This document shows positions 6,181 to 64,000 of a stretch of DNA of 64,000 nt, in pieces. The position numbers were made by a program, and so were the translations under genes. The stretch is from an uncultured Candidatus Saccharibacteria bacterium. GTDB taxonomy: Bacteria; Patescibacteriota; Doudnabacteria; UBA920. Position 1 is the stretch's first letter, and each line of letters starts with the position of its first letter. The notes under the pieces are model-generated. The model was not told the origin of the DNA. It searched no databases and was given only the letters and a program-made list of their open reading frames with translations. The stretch lies in the NCBI GenBank assembly GCA_964532425.1, contig CAZHIA010000001.1:270846-334845 (forward strand), given 5' to 3'.

Positions 6181-6727
6181 GGTCGTGGTTAATGAGTGCT
6201 TGTAATTTTTTTACGGCGCGGTGTTGGATGAGGCGAACTGCCAGGCTGCTCTTGCCGGTGATCTTGGCAGTTTCCTGGATTGAGTACTCGGAGAGATATC
6301 TCAGTTCCAAAATTGTGCGGTAGTGGGCGGGCAGTTTGGCAAGCAGTGCGGCTAATGCCCGGGCATCAATCTGCGCATCAATCGCAGCGCTATCGCGGGA
6401 TTCGACGGGAGTATCGAGATCGTCCAAAAGTTCCACTTCCTGCGGCTGGCGGACATTGCGGCGGTAATGATCGTGGCAGGTGTTGGAGGCAATGCGGTAC
6501 ATCCAGGCTGAAAAATTACCTCCCTGTTCCAGGCGGAACGTAGGCAGACCGCGCCAGGCTTTGAGGAACGTTTCCTGCAGCAGATCTTCGGCCGCTTGCC
6601 GTCCATTGACTTTAAGCCGAATGTAGCGGAATAGGGAATCAGCGAGCAGGTCGTAAATCTTTCCAAAAGCCTCGGTGTCGCCGTGCTGTGCCTTTTCTAT
6701 AAATGGGGTAAGTTCGTTTGTGTTCAC
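6164..6727 (-). CDS. RNA polymerase sigma-70 factor, ECF subfamily
   Basis: Sigma region 2 (DLLQETFLKAWRGL, FSAWMYRIASN) and region 4 (YRTILELRYLSEYSIQETAKITGKSSLAVRLIQHRAVKKL) are clearly present. Confidence 0.85.
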   Translation of the reverse strand: MNTNELTPFIEKAQHGDTEAFGKIYDLLADSLFRYIRLKVNGRQAAEDLLQETFLKAWRGLPTFRLEQGGNFSAWMYRIASNTCHDHYRRNVRQPQEVELLDDLDTPVESRDSAAIDAQIDARALAALLAKLPAHYRTILELRYLSEYSIQETAKITGKSSLAVRLIQHRAVKKLQALINHDHEPHA

Positions 6728-6800
6728 TCAGTATAACGAAAAATTTTCAGGACTGTTTCCCTGGTATTATAGGTCAGAAAGCCGCAAATTGCCACGTTGG

Positions 6801-8990: not shown

Positions 8991-9120
8991 ATGGGTATTA
9001 TACCATACTAGACGTGCCGTCCTCTCATTTTTTACCGACAGTCATGCCAATAAACTAATAGAAAGATTAAAGATAGAAAAATAGAAAGATTTGAACTGGC
9101 AACTAACATATCCTCAAATG

Positions 9121-9150
9121 CAGGAGCGGGTTGAGACCCTGCCCCAATGT
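9121..9150. repeat. REP-like GC-rich hairpin (GGAGCGGGTTGAGACCCTGCCCC), part of a roughly 100 bp tandem duplication
   Basis: Same core as the REP family at 9219, 23056, 23374, 23626, 57006 and 57901. Confidence 0.5.
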
Positions 9151-9218
9151 AGTGCAAGCCCATGGCCTGCCTGTTGAAAGAAAGTTTAGAAAATAGAAAA
9201 ATAGCAAGATGCGTGACC

Positions 9219-9250
9219 TGTAGGGGCGGGTCGAGACCCGCCCGTCAAGA
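9219..9250. repeat. REP-like hairpin GTAGGGGCGGGTCGAGACCCGCCCGTCAAGAG
   Basis: GTAGGG head with a GGGCGGG/CCCGCCC stem. It is preceded by an AGAAAATAGAAAAATAG motif that duplicates the upstream unit. Confidence 0.55.
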
Positions 9251-10650: not shown

Positions 10651-10738
10651 ATGCCTTGCAAAATTCCGGTTATCCTGTATACTAAGCGGAATGCGCAGAA
10701 TGCGCATTTCTCTGAAAAAACAGAAGACAGGAGGCTGT

Positions 10739-11506
10739 ATGGACTGGTTGGTTAATTGGTCCGTGCTTTTGGTGTTCGGAACCATCGGCTTTTGGGTGGC
10801 TACTGTCGTTGTTGTCACCATCATCGCGCCGTGCGTAATCTTCGACCGGAAGAAGTATACCGGCAGGATTGCGACTATCGCACTGCTCGCGTACCTTACT
10901 GCGCTGGCTTTGATGGGCGGCCCAAACGTTTTCAAGCTCGCACTTCACTACTGGTACCTGGTGCCGGTGGTCGTCGTAGTGCACTTTTTCGCAGGGCGAT
11001 ATTACGCGATCTATGTCCAGTGGAAGCTGCGCCTTTCAGAGCTGAGCGGCCGCTTGGAAGAAGAGATTCGCAAGTTCCTTCGCGAACGCAAGATCGAGGG
11101 TGATGCCATTCCGGCGGATCTGGCAGAAGAATGGCAGCGGCATCTGTCCCGGGTAGACCCTCCCATCGACATTGAACCGGATCCGGATAACTACAAGTAC
11201 GACATCTACTTCTGGATCGGATTTTGGCCGTTAAGCGCGGCGTGGACGCTTTTGAGGGATCCGCTGACACGCGCCGTAAAGCACCTGTACCGCATCTCGT
11301 ATCAACAGATGAAGAAAATGTCTGCCGACGAGTTTGCGAAGGCGAAGCAGAATCTTCCGCCTGCGCCACCGTCTCCGCCTGCGGGCTCATCGAAAAACGG
11401 TCCTGAACCTTCGGGGGGCAGGCCGTATGATCCGGACAATTTAGTCCAGAAGAAGCCGCGCCGCCCTGCGGATACAGGGTCGGGCGAGTTCGTAATCAGC
11501 CGGTAA
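10739..11506 (+). CDS. membrane hypothetical protein (start moved to MDWLVNW after the AGGAGG RBS; ORF track 10691..11506)
   Basis: CAGGAGGCTGT ATG context. Several TM helices. Pro-rich C-terminus. Confidence 0.55.
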   Translation: MDWLVNWSVLLVFGTIGFWVATVVVVTIIAPCVIFDRKKYTGRIATIALLAYLTALALMGGPNVFKLALHYWYLVPVVVVVHFFAGRYYAIYVQWKLRLSELSGRLEEEIRKFLRERKIEGDAIPADLAEEWQRHLSRVDPPIDIEPDPDNYKYDIYFWIGFWPLSAAWTLLRDPLTRAVKHLYRISYQQMKKMSADEFAKAKQNLPPAPPSPPAGSSKNGPEPSGGRPYDPDNLVQKKPRRPADTGSGEFVISR

Positions 11507-11510
11507 GTAA

Positions 11511-11555
11511 AAACCGCGTTCACCGTTTCGGTGGGCGCGGTTCCTTTTATTTTTA
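11511..11555 (+). terminator. rho-independent terminator
   Basis: AACCGCGTTCACCG-tttc-GGTGGGCGCGGTT followed by CCTTTTATTTTT. Confidence 0.6.
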
Positions 11556-11623: not shown

Positions 11624-11667
11624 CACACATTCCATTTTTGTCCGGTCGGACAAAAATGGAATGTGTG
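11624..11667. repeat. 44 bp hairpin palindrome CACACATTCCATTTTTGTCCG-GT-CGGACAAAAATGGAATGTGTG (P2 family)
   Basis: Perfect 21 bp stem. The same core (ATTCCATTTTTGTCCGGTCGGACAAAAATGGAAT) recurs at 29984..30037 and 30685..30718. Confidence 0.8.
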
Positions 11668-11712: not shown

Positions 11713-12267
11713 TTATTTGTATCTGAACAACAGTTCTTCCAAAACAGCCTGATACTGTTTCCTTATGGATTCATCGTGGCCCACTTCGAGTACTTCATCG
11801 TTGAGGTTGGTAGCGGACGAAGTCCAGTTAAAGGAACCGGAGGCATAAGCCTTGTCCGTGACGATAGCCTTTAAGTGCATAATAGCCGCATGATCCTGGA
11901 GAACCACGGGAATACCGGCTTTGCGCAAACTGTCGATGATGTCCTTTTGTGAATCGAGTTGTTGGTACTGGGACCGGTCGGAGACGCCGCGGACATCCAG
12001 GCCGCGGTACTTGGCTGCCAGGAGAGCGTCGCGGATATCGGTGCGGGTAAAGGTATAGATGGCAAAGTAGACATACTTGTCCGCATCCTGCGTCAGCTGA
12101 ATGACCTCGCGGTTGAGCTGGTGCTGCTGGTTGTAATAAACTTTTATCTCGCGCTCATGCGCCGGCTTGTATTTGTAATCGTACAAAACCTGGCCGCATA
12201 AACCTAATAGCAGAATGATTACTACTATATAGAGTATGTCGCGCTTGAATTTCATAATAAAATCCAA
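11713..12267 (-). CDS. phospholipase D-like (HKD motif) family protein, Nuc-like endonuclease, membrane-anchored
   Basis: HLKAIVTDKAYASGSFNWTSSA matches HxK(x4)D(x6)GSxN. N-terminal TM. The true start may be the ATG at 12255 (MKFKRD), because codon 12267 is TTG. Confidence 0.75.
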   Translation of the reverse strand: MDFIMKFKRDILYIVVIILLLGLCGQVLYDYKYKPAHEREIKVYYNQQHQLNREVIQLTQDADKYVYFAIYTFTRTDIRDALLAAKYRGLDVRGVSDRSQYQQLDSQKDIIDSLRKAGIPVVLQDHAAIMHLKAIVTDKAYASGSFNWTSSATNLNDEVLEVGHDESIRKQYQAVLEELLFRYK

Positions 12268-12715: not shown

Positions 12716-13147
12716 TTACGTAAACTTCCTAATTTCCTTCTCCGTCTCCCGTTTCTTTATATATTCCCGCTTGTCTGTCTTTTTGCGGGAGCGGCCCATG
12801 CCGATCCGCAATTTCAAAAGACCCCGTCCGGTTTGAAGGATCTCGAGCGGTACGAGGATCAGGCCTTTTTGTCTGCCGATGAGCTGGTCTATCTCTTTCT
12901 TATTGAGCAGTAAATTCCTGGTTTGGGTCGGGTTATAGCCTGGTTGGCGGGCATACGGATAGGGACCGATGTGGCAATTGATCAGTGTTGCGGAGTTGGG
13001 AGAGATGGTTACATAACTGCCGGCCAGCGAGACATTGCCACTTTTGGCAGCTTTAACCTCGGCGCCTGTCAGGACCATGCCTGCCACGAACGTCTCCTGA
13101 ATGTCATAGTCATACCGCGCTCGGCTGTTGTGTGCGAGAGTTTTCAT
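12716..13147 (-). CDS. smpB: SsrA-binding protein SmpB
   Basis: ARYDYDIQETFVAGMVLTGAEVKAAKSGNVSLAGSYV... is the canonical SmpB N-terminus. Basic C-terminal tail. Confidence 0.9.
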   Translation of the reverse strand: MKTLAHNSRARYDYDIQETFVAGMVLTGAEVKAAKSGNVSLAGSYVTISPNSATLINCHIGPYPYARQPGYNPTQTRNLLLNKKEIDQLIGRQKGLILVPLEILQTGRGLLKLRIGMGRSRKKTDKREYIKKRETEKEIRKFT

Positions 13148-13186
13148 AACCGTATTGTACCATGTGTTATACTATGTGTGGAATCC

Positions 13187-13222
13187 AACGTTAATCATCC
13201 GCGGCCGCGGATGATTAACGTT
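13187..13222. repeat. 36 bp palindrome AACGTTAATCATCCGCGGCCGCGGATGATTAACGTT (P1 family, NotI core)
   Basis: Perfect palindrome immediately upstream of the wHTH-Cas2-like gene. Relatives at 13786 and 22331. Confidence 0.8.
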
Positions 13223-13249
13223 GTAGACAATTTTATTAAGCTTTTTTAT

Positions 13250-13786
13250 ATGCCAGCTAAGAAAAGCGATTATATGTTGGAGGCTCTGGAGGTGCTATTT
13301 AACATCGGCAGCGAAATGATTCGATCCCTACCGCTACCGCTTGAAACGCCATACGAACATCTCCGTCGCGTGAGAAGTCTTCCGTATAAGACATACTATG
13401 ATTCCATGCACCAGCTCCACAAACGGGGTGTGGTTCGCATTTCGAAAAAGGATGACCGGTATTTTATAGAGTTAACACAGAAAGGCGCTTTGGAGATGCT
13501 GATGGAAAAGGCGGGGATGGATCATCAGGGAGCGTGGGACGGCAAATGGCGTTTGATTATTTTTGATATTCCGGAGAAGGCTCACTTGCAGCGCGATCGG
13601 CTGCGCTGGCTACTTAAAAAGAACGGCTTTATTAAACTACAAGCCAGCGTATTTATAAACCCATACCCGTTCAACCGTCAGGCGATAGCGTATTTGGAGG
13701 AAACCGGGCTGAATAAATATATTCGCATCCTTCGTGTGGACGATATGGGCGATGATAAAATCCTAAAAAAGAAGTTTAACCTGTAA
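13250..13786 (+). CDS. winged-HTH + Cas2-like (PaaX_C-type) protein, putative transcriptional regulator (paralog 1)
   Basis: N-terminal wHTH-like region. The C-terminal region WDGKWRLIIFDIPEKAHLQRDRLRWLLKKNGFIKLQASVFINPY matches the Cas2/VapD beta-alpha-beta pattern (vvvYDi..R.r..k.L..yG.rvQ.SVf.c). The ORF-track N-extension to 12923 overlaps smpB and is rejected. Confidence 0.6.
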   Translation: MPAKKSDYMLEALEVLFNIGSEMIRSLPLPLETPYEHLRRVRSLPYKTYYDSMHQLHKRGVVRISKKDDRYFIELTQKGALEMLMEKAGMDHQGAWDGKWRLIIFDIPEKAHLQRDRLRWLLKKNGFIKLQASVFINPYPFNRQAIAYLEETGLNKYIRILRVDDMGDDKILKKKFNL

Positions 13787-13821
13787 ACGTTGATCGTTCG
13801 CGGCCGCGAACGATTAACGTT
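13786..13821. repeat. 36 bp palindrome AACGTTGATCGTTCGCGGCCGCGAACGATTAACGTT (P1 family)
   Basis: Overlaps the stop codon of the wHTH-Cas2-like gene. Confidence 0.8.
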
Positions 13822-13887: not shown

Positions 13888-13920
13888 TTCACTGGTGAAA
13901 CAGGAAGATATTATGCTATA
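13888..13920 (+). promoter_or_regulatory. extended -10 promoter (TGCTATAAT) for argS, with a very short leader
   Basis: tgctataat lies 15 nt upstream of the argS ATG. Confidence 0.45.
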
Positions 13921-13934
13921 ATAACAGGGCATTT

Positions 13935-15740
13935 ATGAAAAGTGAAACACCCAAAAATCTCATCAGCCACTTGCTTTCGAGCGCGCTGGCTAATCTTGAA
14001 TTGACTCCGCACGCAGAGCGGGTCGAACTTACCGTACCCGATCCCAGATTCGGGGATTATTCAACGAACGTAGCCATGCTCCTGGCTAAGCATTTGAAGA
14101 TATCACCGCCGCAGGTCGCGAGTCAGATCATCGAAGAAATTATAAAGATCGACCAGGGCAAGATATTGTCTTCCTGCGAAGCGGCTGGAGGGTTTATTAA
14201 TTTCCGATTGTCGACTTCGCTTTTACTCCAACAACTTTCTGCTATTTTGGAGCAGGGTGATCTGTATGGCTGCAGTATGACGGGCGAAGGTAAAACAGTT
14301 CTTGTTGAATATTTTGCGAACAATGTGGCCAAGCCGCCGCATGTCGGACATTTGCGGAGTGCTGTCATTGGCGATTGCCTATACCGTATTTTAAAGAGCC
14401 AGGGCTATAAAACCATTTCCGATACGCATATCGGCGATTGGGGCGTACAGTTCGGTATACTTTTGTTTGCATATAAGGAGTACATCAAGAACGGCGGCAG
14501 CCGGGAAGTCATTGAGGCTGATCCGATCCAGGAACTGAACAAGCTGTATGTGGCCATGTCGGCGCGCATTGACCAGAATGCATCCTTGCGCGAACTTGGG
14601 AAGGAAGAATTCGTCAGACTGGAAAAAGGCGATGAGGAGAACCGCCAGCTCTGGGAGTGGTTCGTTAAGGTCTCTCTGGAGGATTTTGAACGTTACCGCC
14701 AGCTGCTCGATGTGTTGCCATTCGATCATAATCTGGGTGAGAGTTTTTATGAAGACAAAATGCCGGGTATTATTGAGGATCTGAAAGCCAAAGGTTTGCT
14801 GGTAGAATCCCAGGGTGCCCAGATCGTGAATTTGGAAGACAAAGGTCTCGGTGTGGCTATCGTCATCAAGTCCGACGGTGGTACTACGTATTTGCTGCGG
14901 GACCTTGCTACTGTTAAACACCGCTTGAATGAATTTAAGATCGCGAAGGCGCTCTATGTAGTAGACAACCGGCAGAGCCACCATTTTGACCAGGTGTTCG
15001 AGATCGCTCGCAGGGCCGGGTATTTAACTGAAGGGAATGATATTTGCACCCACGTGGACTTTGGCTTTATGAGCCTGCCGGAAGGCGCGATCTCGACCCG
15101 CAAGGGCACAACGGTGAGCCTGCAGAATTTGGTAGATGAAGCTCAAAAGCGGGCGCTGGAAATTATCCAACAAAAGAATCCGGAACTGGAAAATAAGGAA
15201 GCTGTGGCAAAACTGGTTGCACTTTCGGCCATCAAATACTTTGATTTGTCGCATAACCGCAAGACCGAGATCGTCTTCACCTGGGATAAGGCACTGTCAT
15301 TTGAAGGCAATACCGGGCCGTACTTGCAGTACACGCATGCAAGGATACATGGGATATTGAGGAAATCATATATTATTGGGCGTCATCTTGAGGGAGTGCA
15401 TCCGACCGAAGGATCTCAGGCAGAGATTCTTCATTCCTCGGTTGCACTCGGAATTCAGAATGACGCCGGGTTGAACGAACAGGAGCTTGCCGTTCTTCGC
15501 AAACTCGTCAAATTCCCCGAAACAGTCAAACAGGTCAGCGATGATTATTTGCCGAACCAACTTTGCAACTATCTGTTCGAACTTTCGCAGGTATTCAATC
15601 ATTTCTATGAAGAGTGTCCCGTACTTCAGGAACCGGATGCGACGAAAAAGCATTTCCGGCTGCAGCTTATCCAAGCTACGGCGCAGGTGATTGCGAACGG
15701 GCTGTATTTGCTCGGGATCGAGGCGCCGGAAGAAATGTAG
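13935..15740 (+). CDS. argS: arginine--tRNA ligase
   Basis: 601 aa. Class I HIGH-type motif PHVGHLRS. N-terminal Arg-tRNA-binding domain and C-terminal DALR anticodon-binding region (LCNYLFELSQVFNHFYEE). Confidence 0.95.
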   Translation: MKSETPKNLISHLLSSALANLELTPHAERVELTVPDPRFGDYSTNVAMLLAKHLKISPPQVASQIIEEIIKIDQGKILSSCEAAGGFINFRLSTSLLLQQLSAILEQGDLYGCSMTGEGKTVLVEYFANNVAKPPHVGHLRSAVIGDCLYRILKSQGYKTISDTHIGDWGVQFGILLFAYKEYIKNGGSREVIEADPIQELNKLYVAMSARIDQNASLRELGKEEFVRLEKGDEENRQLWEWFVKVSLEDFERYRQLLDVLPFDHNLGESFYEDKMPGIIEDLKAKGLLVESQGAQIVNLEDKGLGVAIVIKSDGGTTYLLRDLATVKHRLNEFKIAKALYVVDNRQSHHFDQVFEIARRAGYLTEGNDICTHVDFGFMSLPEGAISTRKGTTVSLQNLVDEAQKRALEIIQQKNPELENKEAVAKLVALSAIKYFDLSHNRKTEIVFTWDKALSFEGNTGPYLQYTHARIHGILRKSYIIGRHLEGVHPTEGSQAEILHSSVALGIQNDAGLNEQELAVLRKLVKFPETVKQVSDDYLPNQLCNYLFELSQVFNHFYEECPVLQEPDATKKHFRLQLIQATAQVIANGLYLLGIEAPEEM

Positions 15741-19100: not shown

Positions 19101-19362
19101 ACTGAAAGCGGAAGGGTATGCCCGCGAACTGGAGCGGAGCGTTCAGGACCTGCGCAAGCGCAGCGGGCTGAAAGTGGGTGAATTAGTCGACGTCTATTAC
19201 AACACTCAGGAAGAATCTCTGGAGGAGCCACTGCTTAACCTGTTCGACCGCAAGAAGACTTACGTGAGCCAGATCTCCAAGAGTCTGGAAGTAGAAGCCG
19301 ACTTTGAAACTCAGGCCGACATTGACGGCAAGGGGATATGGCTGGGAATCGTGAAAATATAG
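16180..19362 (+). CDS. ileS: isoleucine--tRNA ligase
   Basis: 1060 aa. HIGH (PHYGHIL) and KMSKS present. It carries two low-complexity insertions, including an ATTACGG x3 microsatellite at 17697..17720. Confidence 0.95.
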   Translation: MSEEKPQSTAPNFDQLEQEVLKFWDENHIFEKSLEQTKHGTPYIFYDGPPFATGLPHYGHILGSAVKDAFGRYQTMKGHFVRRRWGWDCHGLPIENIVEQNLKISGKKQIEEVGVERFNRICRENVLRFAEEWGKMVRRMGRWVDFQNSYKTMDTTYMESVWWGLKQIWDKGLIYEDRKVLLYCSRCETPISNFEVAMDNSYRDVTEESVFAKFKMLPRQRIVNDLTNDKTYALAWTTTPWTLPGNTSLNIGPDITYVMVEMDSGERYILAKDRLSVLSEPYELVSEYPARSLEGLMYEPLYPGVIRDPNNRAHKIYQASFVTTTDGTGIVHNAAMYGEEDYQLAKEKGLPRVDMLDHKGQYLEMAPEHLRGVFFKDADKIILKELKEKGLVYKTMAYRHSYPHCYRCGTPLFYNALPAWFINIQQVKPRLRQLNNQEINWYPAHLKEGRFDKSMESAPDWNISRNRYWATALPFWKCDTKECGNVTCVGSVAELKEKATNFSQIYPNYGLRITDSGATGSVAELDLHRPYIDQVVLKCGKCGGEMHRIPEVVDCWVESASMPFAELHFPFENNADRNAEQSLMSTAAADGSLNDMNLSGIMGGSDVAPTTPADVQHHSASDSAPFRGVEDFQHRFPADFVAEYIAQTRAWFYVMHVVSTVIFDHAPFRNVVTTGTVLAEDGSKMSKSKNNFPDPWLLIEKFGIDAVRFYLLSSPVMNADDLNFAEKSVQEVNRKVSLLLYNSLTFLRLYTSGKFEDVKPESSNVLDRWVLARLGQTKREVTQQMDGYNTVKACRAVVDFVNDLSTWYLRRSRDRMKAETEEGKVALSTLAYALAETAKLLAPVMPFLADYIYRDVTGKESVHLAQWPAQTEHVDETLLKAMEAVREIVSVGLNARKELKLPVRQPLQSLAYSVKDGAVEVADSMYVQLILDELNVKQLNPQLLDQHTRPATAKIFTGTNLVSQFYLDTALTPELKAEGYARELERSVQDLRKRSGLKVGELVDVYYNTQEESLEEPLLNLFDRKKTYVSQISKSLEVEADFETQADIDGKGIWLGIVKI

Positions 19363-19480
19363 TAATCTCGAATATAACGAATACAGCGCAAATATACTTA
19401 TGCTGCTGGCCGTTCTTATCAACAAAGGATGGTGTGCGGTATTCGTATATTTGTGCTTGATTTGTATATTAGAGAATACT
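19363..19480. repeat. roughly 120 bp MITE-like intergenic element, copy A (terminal inverted repeats GTAATCTCGAATATAACG / CGTATATTAGAGAATAC)
   Basis: About 88% identical to 27667..27790. It begins at the ileS stop codon (TAGTAATCTCG...) and ends just before the recO start. Confidence 0.75.
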
Positions 19481-19484
19481 ACTT

Positions 19485-22215: not shown

Positions 22216-22283
22216 CAGGGATAGTGCTGAGTGAATAGCGAATAGTGAATAGTCGAAAGTGAAAAGTTATCAAGTTGAAAGAA

Positions 22284-22312
22284 AATCCCGAAGCATGCGC
22301 TTCGGGGTTTTA
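22284..22312 (+). terminator. rho-independent terminator
   Basis: AAATCCCGAAGC-atgc-GCTTCGGGGTTTTAAT. Confidence 0.7.
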
Positions 22313-22330: not shown

Positions 22331-22366
22331 AACGTTGATCGTTCGCGGCCGCGAACGATCAACGTT
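22331..22366. repeat. 36 bp perfect palindrome AACGTTGATCGTTCGCGGCCGCGAACGATCAACGTT (P1 family)
   Basis: Identical in architecture to the palindromes flanking the 13250 gene. Confidence 0.85.
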
Positions 22367-22425: not shown

Positions 22426-23043
22426 ATGAGAAAACTCTTTTTGACATCAGCTTTTGACCGGGTAGCGGCACCGGTCATGGAATATTTGTGGGAGCATCAG
22501 AAGACCAAGGTTGCTTATATTCCGACGGCTTTTGAAATATATAAAGAAGCACCGTGGGCTGAGGTAAACAGGAAGTTGTTTTCGAGGCAGGGTTTTACTA
22601 TGATTGATACACCAGTCTCGCGGATGACAAAAGATGATCTGATCAGCAAATTAGGCGAAATAAATGTTTTGTTTATCGAAGGAGGCAATACGACATACTT
22701 GCTGCAAAAGTGTTTGGAGAGCGGTCTTTGCGAGCTTATACTGAGCCTGGTTGAAACGGGGGTTGTGTATATCGGTTCCAGTGCCGGATCAATTGTGGCT
22801 GGGCCGACCATTGCGCCGTTTATTCCGGAAGACATGAAGGAGTTACCGAGAGGTTATCAAATTTTATCCGATCGCGGTTTTGGATTGGTGCCGGAAGTTG
22901 TTTTGCCGCATTATGATACCGGAGAATTTGCAGCTGAAAATGATATGATCAAGGCTGAGTATGGATCTGCTTTGAAGTTGGTGCCTTTAAATGATGACCA
23001 GTATTTGGAAGTGACAGGGGGGAAGGTGGAATTGAAAGGGTGA
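22426..23043 (+). CDS. peptidase S51 family (dipeptidase E-like)
   Basis: VLFIEGGNTTYLL and the YIGSSAGS serine nucleophile motif. About 205 aa, as in PepE. Confidence 0.7.
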   Translation: MRKLFLTSAFDRVAAPVMEYLWEHQKTKVAYIPTAFEIYKEAPWAEVNRKLFSRQGFTMIDTPVSRMTKDDLISKLGEINVLFIEGGNTTYLLQKCLESGLCELILSLVETGVVYIGSSAGSIVAGPTIAPFIPEDMKELPRGYQILSDRGFGLVPEVVLPHYDTGEFAAENDMIKAEYGSALKLVPLNDDQYLEVTGGKVELKG

Positions 23044-23055
23044 TGGTTATATGTT

Positions 23056-23657
23056 GTAGGGACAGGTCGCGACCTGTCCGTACAGGGAACAGCTATGTTT
23101 CAAAGAAAAGCCAATCGTTTGCAAGAATACGATTATTCCCAGCCGGGGTATTACTTTATTACCCAGTGCGTACAAGATCGGAGATGTTGTTTGGGAGCGG
23201 TGGTCGGTGGGGAGATGGTGTTGAATGAATACGGGAAGATCGTGCAGCGACAATGGCAATGGTTGGCCGAACATTTTCCAAATGTACAATTAGATGAATT
23301 TCAGATCATGCCCAACCACGTGCATGGGATTGTGATCATAACCCCGGCGGGAAACGGCCAGGGTGGTGTGTTTGTAGGGGACGGTCGCGACCGTCCCGTA
23401 CAGAAACCGCTTCCCGATTTAATCGGCGCATTTAAAACCACATCGTCAAAACTGATCCACCGTGCAGGTTTTACCGATTTCTCTTGGCACCGGTCCTTCT
23501 ACGACCACGTCATCCGCAAAGACGAATCGTTAGACAAAGTAAGGGAGTACATTCGTAACAATCCCAAGCAGTGGGAATTGGATGAGGAGAACCCAATCAA
23601 TATAAAGAAAAGTTAAATACCCCCTGTAGGGACAGGCATTGCCTGCCCTCCATACAG
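23056..23657 (+). mobile_element. IS200-like RAYT element: REP-associated tyrosine transposase gene flanked by, and interrupted by, cognate REP palindromes
   Basis: REP copies at 23056..23085 (GTAGGGACAGGTCGCGACCTGTCCGTACAG), 23374..23403 (inside the ORF) and 23626..23657 surround the HUH transposase ORF. Confidence 0.7.
23095..23616 (+). CDS. REP-associated tyrosine transposase (RAYT, IS200/IS605 TnpA-like Y1 HUH transposase)
   Basis: HUH motif MPNHVHGIVII and the C-terminal catalytic-Tyr region SFYDHVIRKDESLDKVREYIRNNPKQWE. A roughly 14 aa insertion (GQGGVFVGDGRDRPVQKP) is encoded by an in-frame REP copy. Confidence 0.75.
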   Translation: MFQRKANRLQEYDYSQPGYYFITQCVQDRRCCLGAVVGGEMVLNEYGKIVQRQWQWLAEHFPNVQLDEFQIMPNHVHGIVIITPAGNGQGGVFVGDGRDRPVQKPLPDLIGAFKTTSSKLIHRAGFTDFSWHRSFYDHVIRKDESLDKVREYIRNNPKQWELDEENPINIKKS

Positions 23658-25485: not shown

Positions 25486-27666
25486 ATGGATCTCAGTAGT
25501 TTGAACGACAAACAGTATGAAGCGGTGACGGCCCCTCTCGGGCCGGTTTTGATCTTGGCCGGGGCAGGCAGCGGCAAGACCCGCGCTCTGGCCTACCGCA
25601 TTGCGTTTTTGTGCCATGAGCATTTAGCCGAACCCGAGCATATTTTGGCTTTAACCTTTACCAACAAAGCGGCCAAAGAGATGGCCGACCGCGTCCAAAG
25701 GATCCTGCAGGACAATCCGTGCAGCGTGCCATATATGGGTACATTCCATTCCATCTGTGCGCGCATCCTGCGGCAGGAGATTATAAAGCTCGGCTACACT
25801 AAAGGATTCACTATTTACGATAGCGATGACCAGGCCAGGGTTGTCCGAGAGATTATCCAGGAGCTGCATATCGACAAACGGTATGGCCCCAGCTTTTTCC
25901 GGGCCATGATCTCGAGCGCAAAAAACATCCTGCAGGCACCCTCGGAACTCCAGATCGGTCTGGACCCGGATACGCACAACTTGGTCCGCGAAGTGTATGT
26001 GCGCTACCAGGATTACCTGTTCCACCAGAACGCGGTGGATTTTGACGACCTGCTCATGCTCACCGTGAAGGTCTTCCAAAATTTCCCGGAGGTTCTCGAA
26101 AAGTACCGCGACCTGTTCCGTTATATCTTGGTCGACGAATATCAGGACACCAACCATGCCCAGTATGTCTTTTTATATCTCCTTGCCGAAAAAACCCATA
26201 ACCTGTTCGTAGTCGGCGATGATGCACAGAGCATTTACGGTTTCCGCGGTAGCAACATCCGAAATATTTTGAATTTCGAGCAGGATTTCCCCGAATGCAA
26301 GGTCATTAAGCTGGAACAGAACTACCGCAGTTCCAAGAATATTTTAGCCGTGGCCCAGAAGGTTATTGAGTTGAACGCCGAACAAAAACCTAAAACGCTG
26401 TGGACGCAAAATGACGAAGGTCCCAAGGTGGAACTGGTCGAATGCGAGGATGAGACAGGCGAGGCCGAGCTGATCGCAAAGAAGATCATCAAAATATCCA
26501 CACTGAAAAACGCGGATGCGGAAACTGATAAACACGGATCAGGTGAACTCGAGTATGAGCCAGAGGAGAAACCTGCGGGCGGATTTTCCATTCTCGACCA
26601 TTTTTTGAAGAAAGCCCGTACCCAGAATAAAAAAGGCGGCCCGCAATTTCCCTCGTTTCTGCCCCAGCTGCCGCGCGATCATGAGCCGCTCAGGCAGTTT
26701 GCCGTGCTATTTCGCACTCACGCTCAATCTCGCGTGCTGGAAGAAATTTTCATCCAGTCAGCCATTCCATACCAGATCATCGGGGGAGTGCGGTTCTATG
26801 AACGCAAAGAGATTAAAGATGTTATAGCCTACTTGCGCCTGGCCATGAACTATCGCGACTTGGTCTCGTTAAAGCGCGTACTGAACGAACCTGCCCGGGG
26901 TATTGGCGAGCGCAGCTATCTGCTCATTAAAGATGCAGTCATGGCCGAAAGCGTGGCTGCGAAGACGGGGAGCCGCGAGCCGCTGCCCCTGGACCGGTTT
27001 GCTGCAAAACTGAAAGACATCAAGTTTGGGCCGAAGATCGCCGCAGCAGTGGATAATTTTTTCCTGTTGCTGGGCCGAATAGCCAGTTTGGACGCTGCGG
27101 AAAACTTGGGCGCGCTCATGCGGCTCGTTATTAAGCGAACCGGCTATGAGGAGTGGGTGCGCGACGGGACCGAGACGGGCGAGGCGCGTTGGGAGAACGT
27201 GGAAGAATTGCTGACCGTGGCGGAAAAGTTCGGTGGCCGGCCATGGAAGGAAGGTCTTGAAGCGTTTTTGGAAGAGGTGGCGCTCATTACGGAGATCGAA
27301 GAGTCGCAGGAAGAACGTGACTGCGTGACACTTATGACTCTGCATTCTGCTAAAGGCTTGGAATTCGATACAGTCTTTTTAATAGGTCTTGAAGAGGGTG
27401 TGCTGCCGCATTCGCGCAGCTTGATGGAGCCGGCTGAGCTCTCCGAGGAGATTCGCCTCGCATACGTGGGGCTGACGCGCGCCCGGAAGAATTTGGTTTT
27501 GACGTATGCCCGCCGCAGGCGCGCGTTTGGCAGCCTGCAATACAACCAGCCGTCGCGCATACTGCGGGTCCTACCGCGCGATAGAGTGAATTTTAAAGGC
27601 TCGTCATATGGCTCTCCGTTCGAGCAGGAAGAAGGGGAGAATACGTATGAAGAACTGGAGTTTTAA
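25486..27666 (+). CDS. pcrA: ATP-dependent DNA helicase, UvrD/PcrA/Rep superfamily 1
   Basis: Walker A AGAGSGKTRAL. Motifs II (ILVDEYQDTN), IV, V and VI (VGLTRARKNLVLTY). Confidence 0.9.
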   Translation: MDLSSLNDKQYEAVTAPLGPVLILAGAGSGKTRALAYRIAFLCHEHLAEPEHILALTFTNKAAKEMADRVQRILQDNPCSVPYMGTFHSICARILRQEIIKLGYTKGFTIYDSDDQARVVREIIQELHIDKRYGPSFFRAMISSAKNILQAPSELQIGLDPDTHNLVREVYVRYQDYLFHQNAVDFDDLLMLTVKVFQNFPEVLEKYRDLFRYILVDEYQDTNHAQYVFLYLLAEKTHNLFVVGDDAQSIYGFRGSNIRNILNFEQDFPECKVIKLEQNYRSSKNILAVAQKVIELNAEQKPKTLWTQNDEGPKVELVECEDETGEAELIAKKIIKISTLKNADAETDKHGSGELEYEPEEKPAGGFSILDHFLKKARTQNKKGGPQFPSFLPQLPRDHEPLRQFAVLFRTHAQSRVLEEIFIQSAIPYQIIGGVRFYERKEIKDVIAYLRLAMNYRDLVSLKRVLNEPARGIGERSYLLIKDAVMAESVAAKTGSREPLPLDRFAAKLKDIKFGPKIAAAVDNFFLLLGRIASLDAAENLGALMRLVIKRTGYEEWVRDGTETGEARWENVEELLTVAEKFGGRPWKEGLEAFLEEVALITEIEESQEERDCVTLMTLHSAKGLEFDTVFLIGLEEGVLPHSRSLMEPAELSEEIRLAYVGLTRARKNLVLTYARRRRAFGSLQYNQPSRILRVLPRDRVNFKGSSYGSPFEQEEGENTYEELEF

Positions 27667-27790
27667 TAGTAATCTCGAATATAACGAATATAGCGCAAAA
27701 TATGCGAATGGCTATTGGCCGTTCCAAGTAACAAAGGACGGTGTGCGGTATTCGGATATTTGTGCTTGATTCGTATATTAGAGATTACTC
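27667..27790. repeat. roughly 120 bp MITE-like intergenic element, copy B
   Basis: Begins TAGTAATCTCGAATATAACGAATATAGCGC right after the helicase stop and ends ...CGTATATTAGAGATTAC. About 88% identical to 19363..19480. Confidence 0.75.
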
Positions 27791-27802
27791 CTTGATACAT
27801 AT

Positions 27803-28720
27803 ATGAACGCTGACGGTTTAAAAGAATATTTACGAAGGTATCAGATAGCACCCAATTTTACGTACGGCCAGAATTTTCTCATTGACGATCTGGTACTGAT
27901 TGATATGGTCGAAGCTGCCGGTGTTACGAAAGGGGATGCGGTATTGGAAATCGGCCCGGGCATCGGCAATTTGACGCGCATGCTGTGCGAACATGCGGGG
28001 TTTGTGCTGAGCGTGGAGAAAGATCCGAAATTCTATCCGATTTTACGATCGATTAAGAAAGATTGTAAAAATTTTCGTTTTGAGGTGGCTGATGCGTTAA
28101 GGTATAATTTTCAGGATTTTTTCCGATCCGGATCTACAGATAGAAATCCGGATCAACGGATAACTACGGATTTGAGACATCAGCAGTTATCAGTAGATCA
28201 GGATGATATCAGTATATCCGGATCGGGTTATAAAGTAGTGGCAAATATCCCATACTACATCACCGGGAAGATCCTCCAGATGCTCTTGAATGCCAAGGAT
28301 AAGCCCACGAGCATCACGGTGCTCACGCAAAAGGAAGTGGCTCAGAACGTGACCGCTAAAACAGGCGACCTGTCTGTGCTGGCCATTTCCGTCCAGCTGT
28401 ATGGAGACCCGAAAATAGTCAAGATTGTCCCGGCAAGAAGCTTTTATCCGGCGCCGAAGGTAGACAGCGCGATTCTGCACATAGACCTGCACAGCAAACC
28501 GAAATATGAGATTGGGGATGAAAAGAAATTCTTTTCCCTGCTGAAAGCTTGTTTTGCAGGCAAGCGAAAGCAAATTCACAACACGCTGAAGAACAATTTG
28601 CGCATGACAGAGGAAGAGGTTAAGCGAGTCCTTGGCGCTACCGGTATCCGCCCTGAAGCCAGGCCGCAAGAACTTTCCATCGATGATTGGGTCAGGCTAA
28701 GCCAGAATTTAAAGATTTAA
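27803..28720 (+). CDS. rsmA: 16S rRNA (adenine1518-N6/adenine1519-N6)-dimethyltransferase RsmA/KsgA
   Basis: YGQNFLID, the SAM motif LEIGPGIGNLT, and NIPYYIT. It contains a roughly 35 aa repeat-derived insertion (CCGGATC repeats at 28120..28230). Confidence 0.9.
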   Translation: MNADGLKEYLRRYQIAPNFTYGQNFLIDDLVLIDMVEAAGVTKGDAVLEIGPGIGNLTRMLCEHAGFVLSVEKDPKFYPILRSIKKDCKNFRFEVADALRYNFQDFFRSGSTDRNPDQRITTDLRHQQLSVDQDDISISGSGYKVVANIPYYITGKILQMLLNAKDKPTSITVLTQKEVAQNVTAKTGDLSVLAISVQLYGDPKIVKIVPARSFYPAPKVDSAILHIDLHSKPKYEIGDEKKFFSLLKACFAGKRKQIHNTLKNNLRMTEEEVKRVLGATGIRPEARPQELSIDDWVRLSQNLKI

Positions 28721-29430: not shown

Positions 29431-29925
29431 ATGGCAACCGCGAAACATAAACACAATAAGCATTTTCATTGGGGCAACCTCGTTGTTGTTTTAGTGGTGG
29501 CAGCATTTTTAGTTGTCGCTTCGTTGCTACGAACCGGAACACTCCATTTGGTTCCAGACCCCCAAGATGGTGGTATTGATTCGTATTTTACTTCGCTGGA
29601 AACCGTGCGTTCAGAGAATTATTTTTCTGATTTGGTCATTGAACCTGCAACTGGCAGCAAGCCGCAGCCTGCGGAGCAGGAACCCGTGGTTCCTGGTGCT
29701 CAGCCGATGAACGATCTGAATGTCCCCAAACAGCCGAAGCAGCCATCGGCTGCATCGACAAAGGACTCGATGCTGGTTTCGTTCACTCGAAATTTGAACA
29801 ATGCACTCCATCAGCAATTATCAGTCATGGCTCATGAGCAAGCGCAGGTTGCGGGGGCTGAGGCGAGCAAACCCATCGAACCCATCCGTGGCTGGACGCA
29901 GTATCCTATCAGGCTGGGAGAATAA
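29431..29925 (+). CDS. membrane-anchored hypothetical protein (164 aa)
   Basis: His-rich N-terminus, one TM, Pro/Gln-rich linker. Confidence 0.45.
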   Translation: MATAKHKHNKHFHWGNLVVVLVVAAFLVVASLLRTGTLHLVPDPQDGGIDSYFTSLETVRSENYFSDLVIEPATGSKPQPAEQEPVVPGAQPMNDLNVPKQPKQPSAASTKDSMLVSFTRNLNNALHQQLSVMAHEQAQVAGAEASKPIEPIRGWTQYPIRLGE

Positions 29926-29934
29926 CACGATTTT

Positions 29935-29965
29935 CAAAACCGGTACTAGCCGGTTTTATTTTATA
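29935..29965 (+). terminator. rho-independent terminator
   Basis: AAACCGGTACTAGCCGGTTT followed by TATTTTAT. Confidence 0.65.
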
Positions 29966-29983: not shown

Positions 29984-30037
29984 CATGCGACATATTCCAT
30001 TTTTGTCCGGTCGGACAAAAATGGAATATGTCGCATG
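29984..30037. repeat. 54 bp perfect hairpin palindrome CATGCGACATATTCCATTTTTGTCCGGTCGGACAAAAATGGAATATGTCGCATG (P2 family)
   Basis: Immediately upstream of wHTH-Cas2-like paralog 2. Confidence 0.85.
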
Positions 30038-30091
30038 GACATGGGGGTGGAAAAAGTTTGAAAATAATTCCCTTAAACTGAGGGTAATCAT

Positions 30092-30649
30092 ATGGCAAGG
30101 AAACACAAGCGGAACAGTAAGGAGGTCAAATTGACAGTCGCTGGGCATATACTAATATATTTGCTAGTAGGAATAGATTTGTTGCCCCGGCCGTTTGAAC
30201 ATAAAACCGCCTACGTCAAAAGAATTTTTAAAGGACAAGTCGCTTACTCGGCCTATTGGTCAGCCGTACAGCGCCTTGAGCGGCTTGGTTTAGTGATTGA
30301 AAAAGAAGACGATAATGGAAATATTGTATTCGCATTGACTGAGAAGGGGAGACTCGAAGCTTTATTTGAGAAAGCGAAGATTCAGAAGCAGGAACCGTGG
30401 GATGGAAAATGGAGATTGATGATCTTTGATATTCCTGAAAAGGCCCGCCATCAGCGCAGATTATTGCGCTATTTATTGAGAAAGAATCAATTTGTTAAAT
30501 TGCAAGAAAGTGTCTTTATTAGCCCTTACGCTCTGAATGTTGAAGCGATTGCGTATTTAAAAGAAACTGGCTTGAATGTATATATTCGTCTGCTTCGCGT
30601 AGACCAAATGGATGATGATAAGGACCTTTGTAAGAAGTTTGGTTTATGA
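30092..30649 (+). CDS. winged-HTH + Cas2-like (PaaX_C-type) protein, putative transcriptional regulator (paralog 2)
   Basis: About 45-50% identity to the 13250 protein across the C-terminal half (WDGKWRLMIFDIPEKARHQRRLLRYLLRKNQFVKLQESVFISPY...AIAYLKETGLNVYIRLLRVDQMDDD). Confidence 0.6.
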   Translation: MARKHKRNSKEVKLTVAGHILIYLLVGIDLLPRPFEHKTAYVKRIFKGQVAYSAYWSAVQRLERLGLVIEKEDDNGNIVFALTEKGRLEALFEKAKIQKQEPWDGKWRLMIFDIPEKARHQRRLLRYLLRKNQFVKLQESVFISPYALNVEAIAYLKETGLNVYIRLLRVDQMDDDKDLCKKFGL

Positions 30650-30684
30650 GTTTAAAAATCATATTTGCTGCCCGAACCAGGAAC

Positions 30685-30718
30685 ATTCCATTTTTGTCCG
30701 GTCGGACAAAAATGGAAT
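30685..30718. repeat. P2-family hairpin palindrome ATTCCATTTTTGTCCGGTCGGACAAAAATGGAAT
   Basis: Directly downstream of paralog 2; same core as the repeats at 11624 and 29984. Confidence 0.8.
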
Positions 30719-30979
30719 ATAACAAATAGAAGAGGATGAGTATGGTTTTGAAGGTTGGGTTTGGATTAGAAATGAATCGGAAATGAATGGAAAATGGTTC
30801 CCGGTTTGTAGGATGTGGTTATTGGGAAAAAATTTTGTGGACAAACGGGGTTTGTGGTATAATATTTGCAAGAAATGTAGAGCGAGTTTCGGAAATAAAG
30901 GTTCACTCTGTAAACAGCACGGAAGTGAACCTGTATTAGCTCCTCGGCTCGCTCGTCCGCAAGCGGCCGGCCTCTCTCT

Positions 30980-56976: not shown

Positions 56977-57005
56977 TCTCTTTTTAGGTACGCGTCCATT
57001 TAAAC

Positions 57006-57036
57006 CTGTAGGGGCAGATCCCGACCCGTCTCTGCA
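57006..57036. repeat. REP-like element CTGTAGGGGCAGATCCCGACCCGTCTCTGCA
   Basis: Shares the CTGTAGGGG head with REP copies at 9219 and 23626. Confidence 0.45.
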
Positions 57037-57900: not shown

Positions 57901-57929
57901 GTAGGGGCGGGTTTGAAACCCGTCCCTAC
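57901..57929. repeat. REP-like hairpin GTAGGGGCGGGTTTGAAACCCGTCCCTAC
   Basis: Same family as 9219 and the RAYT-associated REPs. Confidence 0.6.
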
Positions 57930-63356: not shown

Positions 63357-63563
63357 AGGGAAGAAGGATAAGTGATCGTTAATGTAATTGACGGTACATA
63401 TAATTTTTCCTTACGCCTTGAGCAGCTTTTTCACCCATAGGAATAAGCAAAAGCGAAAATATTTTATGAAACACAACTGATGTTTTGTACGTATTATGAT
63501 TAACACATTTTAACCAACAACACTCAAGATACTTGACTGTAGAAATGGTTGTTTATTACAAAT

Positions 63564-63600
63564 AAAATTCCCAATAGTCGTAAAGACTATTGGGAATTTT
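63564..63600. terminator. bidirectional terminator-like hairpin AAAATTCCCAATAGTC-GTAAA-GACTATTGGGAATTTT
   Basis: Perfect 16 bp stem flanked by an A4 and a T4 run. Confidence 0.6.
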
Positions 63601-63961
63601 ATAGCCTTGTACCAGTCATCCGCCTCAGGCGGATGCCGGTACAGGGCATGAACCACTGGCCGATAGAAGCGTTCGTATTAAAGACACAGCTTTATGGCTG
63701 TGCCATGATACCCGATCCGCCAGAGGCGGAGAGTGGTTCATGGCGGAGAGGGAGGGATTTTCGTCTCGGCTCTCTGCTGAAAGCCTCGTTGTCCGGGGCA
63801 GCTGAAGGGGGAGGGATTCGGTCGCCCACGGCGGACTTTCAACTCCCTCCGGTCGTTTCAAGTCTCGCCTAGCGCGACCCCGCCGCTATTATTTGCTCGC
63901 TTGCTCGCAAATAATTTTTCCCTTCGGGAAAACCGCTCTTTTCGAATCCCCCTTCCAATAT
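63601..63961 (-). ncRNA. candidate structured non-coding RNA (roughly 360 nt, GC-rich, unknown class); strand assignment tentative
   Basis: No credible ORF. UUCG-tetraloop hairpin TTTTCCC-TTCG-GGAAAA. Long-range complementarity ATGAACCACTGG / CCAGTGGTTCAT. Several local GC hairpins. Bounded by two covarying hairpins (63564 and 63962). On the minus strand it would end at the 63600 hairpin plus a U tract. Confidence 0.25.
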
Positions 63962-63998
63962 AAAATGACCAATTGCCGTAAAGACAATTGGTCATTTT
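63962..63998. terminator. bidirectional terminator-like hairpin AAAATGACCAATTGCC-GTAAA-GACAATTGGTCATTTT
   Basis: Same architecture and loop as 63564..63600, with compensatory changes in the stem. Confidence 0.55.
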
Positions 63999-64000
63999 AT

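Follow-up and report, generated by a model that had tools for sequence, protein, structure and literature searches.

A short PaaX-like protein flanked by private long palindromes in a Patescibacterial genome: a candidate autoregulator with cognate DNA sites

Members of the Patescibacteria, or candidate phyla radiation (CPR), have tiny genomes with few recognizable regulators, and to our knowledge almost nothing is known about gene control in these bacteria. Here we describe two short paralogous genes, each lying between copies of a long palindrome of its own, in a stretch of 64,000 nucleotides from an uncultured Candidatus Saccharibacteria bacterium (Doudnabacteria; contig CAZHIA010000001.1, positions 270,846 to 334,845), hereafter the window. 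We put at roughly 0.65 the probability that the product of the gene at 30092..30649, termed paralog 2, is a minimal PaaX-like dimeric autoregulator with private cognate palindromes in double-stranded DNA, to which its binding is predicted from sequence comparisons.

The closest described relative of this protein, and its best profile and fold match, is PaaX, the phenylacetyl-CoA-responsive repressor of Escherichia coli and Pseudomonas (8A39), which likewise combines a winged helix-turn-helix (wHTH) domain at its N terminus with a Cas2-like middle domain. The PaaX operator is long and dyad symmetric and lies at the gene's own promoter, which PaaX represses; in E. coli it reads TGATTC-N27-GAATCA and spans 39 bp, to be compared with 36–40 bp for the dyad found upstream of most genes of the family described here, which often overlaps a -10 box (PMC9493321 for PaaX). 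The two systems also differ in several respects. PaaX of E. coli has 316 aa and includes PaaX_C, its effector-binding part, whereas the window protein has about 180 aa and lacks PaaX_C; genes of the paa pathway are absent from its vicinity; and its sites are palindromic throughout, not at the ends only, have a conserved CGRYCG center and flank the gene on either side. The window family also keeps Cas2 motifs that E. coli PaaX has lost. With Cas2 itself, the C-terminal domain shares a ferredoxin-like fold and the signature FDxP...QxSV(F/Y), but Cas2 is a stand-alone protein of ~90–110 aa encoded in the context of cas1 and a repeat array, whereas the window protein has 185 aa, is fused to a wHTH domain and is encoded in a housekeeping neighborhood. 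In Cas1–Cas2 complexes, Cas2 dimers lie along a duplex of ~23 bp, which by analogy makes it plausible that a Cas2-like dimer could sit over the center of a palindrome.

Paralog 2, encoded on the forward strand, consists of a wHTH domain (residues ~16–96) followed by a Cas2-like ferredoxin-fold domain (PaaX_M, residues ~104–185). Residues 101–174 match PF20803 PaaX_M, described as the 'central Cas2-like domain', with an E value of 2.5e-20 and 72.8 bits (cutoff 24). Matches to Cas2 PF09827 (E 1.2e-4, 22.6 bits, below the cutoff of 23.8) and to winged-helix Pfam models (HTH_27, E 0.008) are weak. For PaaX_C there was no match at E ≤ 1, and the protein ends at residue 185 right after the Cas2-like domain. 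An AlphaFold2 model (predicted local distance difference test score 85.5) places the wHTH, with helices at residues 16–26, 38–45, 52–64 and 84–96 and wing strands at 68–72 and 78–82, ahead of a beta-alpha-beta-beta-alpha-beta domain; the predicted recognition helix is formed by residues 52–64 and the wing by residues 68–82. The top PDB matches by Foldseek were PaaX (8a39, E. coli), Rv0674 (3kfw) and 3l09, the C-terminal half matching in addition the Cas2 entries 5zyf, 8ia4, 5xvn and 6jhz, and the N-terminal half MarR, PadR, F-93 and AspA; a search of the PDB with the family profile gave the same picture. The family is large, with 4405 clusters at 50% identity in a profile search (E ≤ 1e-10), and uniform in length at about 165–200 aa. 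Its homologs come from metagenome-assembled genomes of Patescibacteria, including Doudnabacteria and many that are labeled Saccharibacteria, Moranii- or Giovannonibacteria. The neighbors of the window genes are smpB, argS, a phospholipase D (PLD)-like gene, ksgA, uvrD and a gene for a giant membrane protein, and no paa genes are found nearby. Both window paralogs score far below the cutoff of the PaaX equivalog model TIGR02277 (31.4 and 42.9 bits; cutoff 264.55). Paralog 2 is thus a minimal, short member of the PaaX family, composed of a wHTH and a Cas2-like domain without PaaX_C.

Many family members carry the public annotation 'CRISPR-associated endonuclease Cas2'. The family has kept the Cas2 motifs FD(I)PE and LQxSVF, both absent from the solved structures of PaaX (8a39) and Rv0674 (3kfw), and in an alignment with type II-A Cas2 the family's 'iiFDIPE...LQaSVf' pairs with 'lmFDMPTD...HQFSVY', its Asp matching the metal-binding Asp of Cas2. 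Residues D104, D113, R122, R126, Q138 and S140 are invariant in the family. As paralog 1 also passes the Cas2 model TIGR01573 (27.0 bits; cutoff 24.5), while paralog 2 falls below it at 22.8 bits, the public labels are readily explained. The window contains no CRISPR-like array, and no cas genes were found among the flanking genes examined, a survey in which not every open reading frame (ORF) was searched for cas1.

The palindrome that flanks paralog 2 has arms of the ATTCC...GGAAT type and the center CGGTCG, in keeping with the CGRYCG consensus of the family. Its sequence, ATTCCATTTTTGTCCG-GT-CGGACAAAAATGGAAT, occurs exactly three times in the 64-kb window, the scope of all window counts given here. 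The 34-nt core ATTCCATTTTTGTCCGGTCGGACAAAAATGGAAT is exact at 11629–11662, 29994–30027 and 30685–30718 (0 expected from 100 dinucleotide shuffles), the GT center lies on the + strand in the same orientation in all three copies, and no isolated half-sites exist elsewhere in the window. Beyond the palindrome no homology was found among the flanks of the three copies, whose tails read, for example, ATAACAAATA from 30719 and GGTGATAC from 11668, and the repeat unit is therefore the palindrome itself. The upstream copy (29984..30037), which the first-pass annotation of the window had described as a 54-bp perfect palindrome, is indeed a perfect 54-nt hairpin with 26-nt arms (29984–30009 and 30012–30037), but it is not a strict palindrome, as the 2-nt GT at its center is not palindromic. 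The core that it has in common with the other copies is 29990–30031. Its end is separated from the ATG by 54 nt and adjoins or overlaps a predicted -35 hexamer, TGGACA, at 30036–30041. The downstream copy (30685..30718), with perfect 16-nt arms, or 18-nt arms with one mismatch (30683–30720), begins 35 nt past the stop codon, where it had been placed at first reading; the third copy, likewise reported from the outset, is an orphan at 11624..11667 with 21-nt arms and an extension unrelated in sequence to that of the upstream copy. An exact-pattern scan of GTDB representative genomes returned 0 matches to this palindrome.

Paralog 1 (13250..13786, forward strand) encodes a short PaaX-family protein of 178 aa that is 55% identical to paralog 2, and it too has a three-copy palindrome of its own, so that the pairing of each paralog with a separate palindrome family, proposed in the first-pass annotation, is borne out. 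This palindrome follows the pattern AACGTT(R)ATC..CGCGGCCGCG..GAT(Y)AACGTT. The upstream copy (13186..13223) is a perfect palindrome of 38 bp with the center GCGGCCGC, situated between paralog 1 and the divergent smpB (12716..13147, reverse strand); the downstream copy (13786..13821) has 36 bp with one mismatch, its first base being the last base of the stop codon; and an orphan at 22331..22366 is a perfect palindrome of 36 bp. As counted from the alignment, identity between the two proteins amounts to 36% over the winged-helix half and to 68% over the Cas2-like half.

That this arrangement is a property of the family, and not of one genome, emerged from a wider sample. Eighty further loci were fetched from species-representative genomes, and the scan for palindromes with a CGRYCG center and arms of at least 12 nt covered 82 loci plus the window, altogether 1.245 Mb with 88 family genes; L-numbers below denote related loci from other genomes or contigs. 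Of the 84 CGRYCG-centered palindromes, 74 adjoin or overlap the ends of family genes, zones that amount to ~3% of this sequence, whereas of the 205 other palindromes, for the most part ordinary terminators, 182 are situated far from family genes. When the search for the second copy was relaxed, palindromes were found on both sides of at least 46 genes. Median distances are 45 nt from the upstream dyad to the ATG and 23 nt from the stop codon to the downstream dyad, and the two dyads are 600 bp apart (median; range 554–844 bp). The center is CGGCCG in most clades, CGATCG in one and CTATAG in a few distant members. In contrast to this conserved center, the arms differ for every paralog and ortholog: within the window the copies of each palindrome family share an identical core, paralogs of one genome have different arms, and the sites of orthologs differ completely. 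A case in point is the syntenic ortholog at L001 (uvrD-ksgA-DUF192...gene-giant membrane protein), which is bracketed by a different palindrome, ATGATTGCATTTTAGACGGCCGTCTAAAATGCAATCAT, perfect past the stop codon and imperfect upstream. Among the orphan copies at the other loci, eight in number, five match the palindrome of the family gene at the same locus. Taken with the faster divergence of the wHTH half, the possession of separate palindromes by the two paralogs and the recurrence of the same layout with different arms, these comparisons support the earlier suggestion of a duplication followed by co-diversification of protein and site, and extend it to a family-wide architecture. We found no description of a palindrome-gene-palindrome architecture for such PaaX/Cas2-like proteins in the searchable literature.

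The symmetry of the sites also has a definite extent and internal structure. Complementarity of the arms stays at 95% or more as far as position 15 from the dyad and, after 79% at position 18, falls to 0.45–0.38 at positions 20–22 and to a baseline of ~30% beyond, which defines an element of about 36–40 bp. Identity between the two copies of a locus follows a different course: it is 95–100% at positions 1–4 from the dyad, drops to 67–84% at positions 5–11, rises again to 84–95% at positions 12–16 and declines beyond position 17. Each half-site is therefore bipartite, consisting of an inner core and, roughly one helical turn away, an outer box. In its size and in the geometry of the outer boxes the element matches the known operator of the PaaX family.

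These features can be accommodated in a simple scheme. A dimer of paralog 2 would sit on its ~38-bp dyad, the ATTCC...GGAAT palindromes being its cognate double-stranded sites, such that the conserved Cas2-like dimer lies over the conserved CGRYCG center (here CGGTCG) and the two variable winged helices recognize the outer boxes, which are specific to each paralog and lie about 12–16 bp from the dyad. The upstream site at its own promoter would provide for autoregulation, and the same protein would also bind the 3' site and the few orphan sites, which may serve as auxiliary operators, through looping over ~600 bp, and/or as protein roadblocks or insulators at gene 3' ends. Paralog 1 would act likewise with its own palindrome, both pairs having probably arisen by an ancient duplication and then co-diverged in recognition domain and site. 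A promoter site combined with a second cognate site several hundred bp away is likewise found with the lambda cI repressor, whose gene lies between OL and OR, and with the auxiliary operators of lac, gal and deo. In contrast to those systems, any tetramer or loop is hypothetical here, the two flanking sites show no helical phasing (Rayleigh p 0.38), and the 3' site lies tight against the stop codon.

Several observations indicate that the constraint on the palindromes acts on double-stranded DNA and not on a transcript. If transcribed, the sites would form RNA hairpins of high predicted stability (-20.7 to -42.1 kcal/mol, z -5.4 to -10.5), the upstream copy of paralog 2 being the extreme at -42.1 kcal/mol and z -10.5; the downstream copy occupies a terminator-like position, changes in one arm are mirrored in the other within each copy, and Cas2 proteins are annotated as endoribonucleases, all of which would suit terminators, 3'-end stabilizers or RNase targets that the Cas2-like domain binds or cuts as RNA. 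This reading strikes us as very improbable. A T-tract, taken as 5 or more T within the 8 nt that follow, is present at only 16% of the 3' copies; on the sense strand, arm mismatches are not biased toward G:U over A:C (13 versus 11 downstream, 20 versus 20 upstream); many upstream copies lie 5' of the inferred transcription start; elsewhere the organism relies on ordinary terminators; and Rfam yielded only sub-threshold matches to generic hairpins. Two further findings point to the promoter. A strong -10-like box is present at the gene-proximal edge of 43% of the upstream copies, compared with 9–14% at three control positions, and the distance from dyad to ATG clusters at 26–36 nt, which fits leaderless transcripts with the dyad at about -30. 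It is the lack of T-tracts and of a G:U bias, combined with this enrichment and this fixed distance, that argues for a constraint at the level of the DNA duplex.

A related possibility, that the palindromes are generic terminators found after unrelated genes without enrichment near the paralogs, was rejected. Intrinsic terminators also form a stable predicted hairpin just past a stop codon, but they consist of a GC-rich stem of 5–15 bp and a U-tract, whereas the window sites have long AT-rich stems with a GC center and lack a T-tract, are specific to each paralog, occur upstream as well, and are strongly enriched at family genes as described above; ordinary terminators of the window are of the AAA-stem-TTT type. 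One such canonical terminator (29936..29957, + strand) serves the gene upstream of paralog 2 (29431..29925), and the 54-nt hairpin is thus not needed for that role.

With the dyad near -30 in most family members, repression would be expected, and in many loci the upstream site appears to cover the core promoter in a classical autorepression geometry. In the window, the promoter predicted for paralog 2 (30036..30065, + strand; sigma-70-like, TGGACA-18-GAAAAT) is a match to consensus only, and the upstream dyad (30010/30011) falls at about -61 relative to the start that this promoter implies, so the sign of any regulation is less certain here than elsewhere in the family.

A number of findings sit uneasily with autoregulation by a dimer at its operator and have to be weighed against it. 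The first is the offset just described, which leaves the window's upstream dyad off a core promoter that is itself weakly predicted. Under the criteria used, 35 of the 88 family genes have no palindrome. The 3' copy is more frequent than the upstream copy and on average more perfect and symmetric; it is equally present where the downstream neighbor is convergent (14/42), and it lies ~100–170 bp upstream of the next gene's promoter, not on it. Nor are the sites exclusive to the brackets. A palindrome-first scan of metagenomes for WWWTTGACGGCCGTCAAWWW recovered 132 sites, among which the long-arm sites far from contig ends comprised 31 orphans and 14 gene-adjacent copies, making orphans about as common as, or commoner than, gene-flanking copies; 7 of the 31 orphans are inside ORFs, and the intergenic ones lie between convergent (7), divergent (2) and co-directional (15) genes, where 15%, 21% and 64% are expected under the null. 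A plain promoter-operator model does not predict orphans that lean toward convergent regions or lie within ORFs. A Mantel-type test of protein domains against parts of the half-site detected weak covariation, confounded by phylogeny. Finally, at 35 of 55 positions that differ between the two copies of a locus the difference is still mirrored within each copy, and single copies bear unrelated palindromic extensions of up to 26–29 nt, the 54-nt hairpin being an example; neither feature is explained by one dimer that recognizes one sequence.

The sites do lean toward gene 3' ends, which raises the possibility that the protein is in the first place a site-specific punctuation or roadblock factor that stops or insulates transcription at gene 3' ends or between genes, control of its own gene being a side effect. 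Consistent with such a role, the 3' copy begins at about -11 to +30 nt from the stop codon in most loci, besides being the commoner and more symmetric one; no canonical terminator was found after either window paralog; orphans favor convergent over divergent regions; and at L162 the order is gene - palindrome - cysS - palindrome - dnaB. This explanation we nevertheless regard as unlikely. The -10 box at the proximal edge of the upstream copies and their fixed distance to the ATG are not accounted for, canonical terminators occur at similar rates in genes with and without a 3' palindrome (14/43 versus 9/42; background 23%), and the orphan-context numbers are small, with p about 0.03–0.06.

The orphans of the window are equally mixed in context. 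The copy at 11624 lies between the convergent genes 10691..11506 (+ strand) and the PLD-like 11713..12267 (- strand), near a separate canonical terminator at 11512–11542; a small ORF or small RNA beside it was considered and rejected, for want of a credible ORF and with weak promoter matches. The copy at 22331 lies 60 nt 5' of a peptidase S51 gene (22426..23043), just past a canonical terminator at 22282–22311. The metagenome scan is compatible with the figure of about 8 orphans per Mb estimated from the loci. Its orphans include examples 5' of groES, in the interval from cysS to dnaB and in that from miaA to thrS. The groES-associated site is a 42-bp perfect palindrome, AAATCCTGCCTAAATTGACGGCCGTCAATTTAGGCAGGATTT, ~76 nt 5' of the gene in two metagenome contigs (L087 3389–3430 and L193 4034–4075), which hints that one paralog may control the chaperonin operon in some CPR lineages. 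Two further orphan palindromes with a CGGCCG center lie in frame, with coding undisrupted, in genes for a RecG-like helicase and for Fpg/MutM (L007 11615–11650 and L008 9548–9577). In length the Fpg segment with the palindrome matches the E. coli Fpg sequence, and it therefore does not look like an insertion.

The mirrored arms and copy-specific extensions possibly reflect selection at the DNA level for a cruciform or hairpin, or else quasi-palindrome correction by template switching, a known mutational bias. They also bear on the idea of an active, metal-dependent nuclease in the Cas2-like domain, which would nick or cut an extruded cruciform or the CGRYCG center and have the palindromes as substrates as well as binding sites. 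The retention of FD(I)PE, with the equivalent of the metal-binding Asp, and of LQxSVF, where 8a39 and 3kfw have lost them, is in its favor, as is the invariance of the six polar residues, and long, perfect, copy-specific arms suggest that formation of a hairpin or cruciform matters. The retained residues may, on the other hand, serve in folding, dimerization or backbone contacts; cutting the chromosome beside essential genes seems costly; and template switching could yield perfect arms unaided. Nuclease activity would thus seem a poor prospect. In a broader and bolder version, to which we give only slightly more credence, the wHTH-Cas2 fusion would be a catalytically competent dimer that measures, and possibly nicks, the ~38-bp palindrome at CGRYCG, and for which the hairpin or cruciform state is functional; such a state would explain both the mirrored arms and the copy-specific extensions.

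The suggestion in the first-pass annotation that the two paralogs could be related hairpin-flanked selfish cassettes did not hold up. REP/RAYT elements (REPtrons) and pdif modules likewise place a gene between short palindromic repeats with additional intergenic copies, and a mobile or recombining cassette of this kind, or one with ends like those of IS200/IS605, would leave orphans as solo footprints. In line with such an origin, the repeats on either side of the gene are direct and at the same time inverted, several paralogs are present per genome, there are orphan copies, in part in frame within ORFs, and the nuclease-like Cas2 motif is retained. Yet paralog 2 belongs neither to the Y1 transposases nor to the tyrosine recombinases, the palindrome-gene-palindrome unit has no transposase or recombinase associated with it, and copy numbers are low, at three per palindrome family in the 64-kb window. 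The order smpB <-> gene -> argS of window paralog 1 is kept at L011, L053, L064 and L079, the order gene -> cysS -> dnaB in 6–7 loci, and the giant-protein neighborhood of window paralog 2 in 4–5 loci, including L001, L009, L020 and L024. These synteny groups span deeply diverged genomes with conserved position and orientation, and within-genome paralogs are 37–70% identical, so none of them is recent. No family relatives were found in viral contigs, the flanks of the window copies are unrelated, and the window orphans share their core exactly with sites of a living paralog, unlike decayed relics. An invertible or Xer-type cassette was rejected on the conservation of orientation within synteny groups, and selfish mobility altogether appears exceedingly improbable next to vertical inheritance of a regulator and its sites.

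A different set of repeats, apparently of REP/RAYT type, is present in the window in addition to the palindromes of the paralogs. An ORF resembling IS200/Y1 transposases (23095..23616; PF01797, E 1.2e-6) has TGTAGGGACAGGTCGCGACCTGTCCGTACA just upstream (region 23055–23616) and a second copy of it within its coding sequence at 23373–23402, and related hairpins of the GTAGGGGCGGGTC type are scattered at 9116–9140, 9216–9245, 57004–57028 and 57901–57929. A link between the paralog palindromes and this gene was considered and rejected, since its repeat family differs.

Other features of the two neighborhoods were recorded. The downstream copy of paralog 2 is followed by neither a T-tract nor a further terminator-like site before the next promoter, a promoter-like site with an extended -10 (TGgTATAAT; 30838..30865, + strand) that belongs to the downstream gene for a 1220-aa membrane protein and lies ~140 nt past the palindrome. 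Its motif is kept in L001, L024 and L009: TTTGTGGTATAAT is found at window 30850–30862, at L001 ~6722–6735 and in the two other loci, ~120–130 nt 5' of the giant gene. In several genomes this gene comes next after the paralog-2 ortholog, and conservation seems to extend to the long 5' leader regions. The family-1 upstream palindrome is flanked by a weak candidate promoter of paralog 1 and by a leaderless-looking smpB promoter (13182-13154 on the smpB strand; TCCACA-17-TACAAT), and a promoter-like site of argS lies at 13895–13922. Many genes look leaderless, with a good -10 box, often TG-extended, 5–8 nt before the ATG and without a Shine-Dalgarno sequence; examples are smpB (13154–13182) and argS (13895–13935) in the window and cysS in L006, L014, L016 and L021.

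Two observations elsewhere in the window concern other repeats. An intergenic repeat of ~125 nt, 87–97% identical between copies, occurs at 19359–19484 and 27666–27793, each time immediately before a gene start (19485, and ksgA at 27803), and may represent a common promoter or leader, or else a small RNA. At 63562–64000, the related hairpins ATAAAATTCCCAATAGTC...GACTATTGGGAATTTTAT and ATAAAATGACCAATTG...CAATTGGTCATTTTAT, the second of which coincides with the end of the window, bracket ~350 nt of GC-rich sequence with few ORFs; the stretch has no Rfam match at threshold, and its minus strand carries GAAAGTCCG, reminiscent of P4 of RNase P. It may be an unrecognized structured RNA gene between yet another family of hairpins.

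What has often been labeled in databases as orphan Cas2 thus appears to be a large CPR family with several paralogs per genome, whose members are suggested by the present evidence to be minimal PaaX-like DNA-binding proteins, encoded next to essential genes such as argS, cysS, dnaB, smpB and groES. The predicted pairs of protein and site can be tested on synthetic DNA, by electrophoretic mobility shift assay (EMSA) or DNA affinity purification sequencing (DAP-seq), even for organisms that have not been cultivated, and the diverged pairs offer a natural system for studying the diversification of regulator specificity in the absence of cross-talk. Both the mirrored arms and the Cas2 motifs that the family has kept may be relevant to the origin of Cas2 and PaaX. 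Were the fusion to prove catalytically competent, it would represent a new class of sequence-specific, structure-dependent DNA punctuation in CPR bacteria, and it might show how the duplex-measuring capacity of Cas2 arose outside CRISPR.

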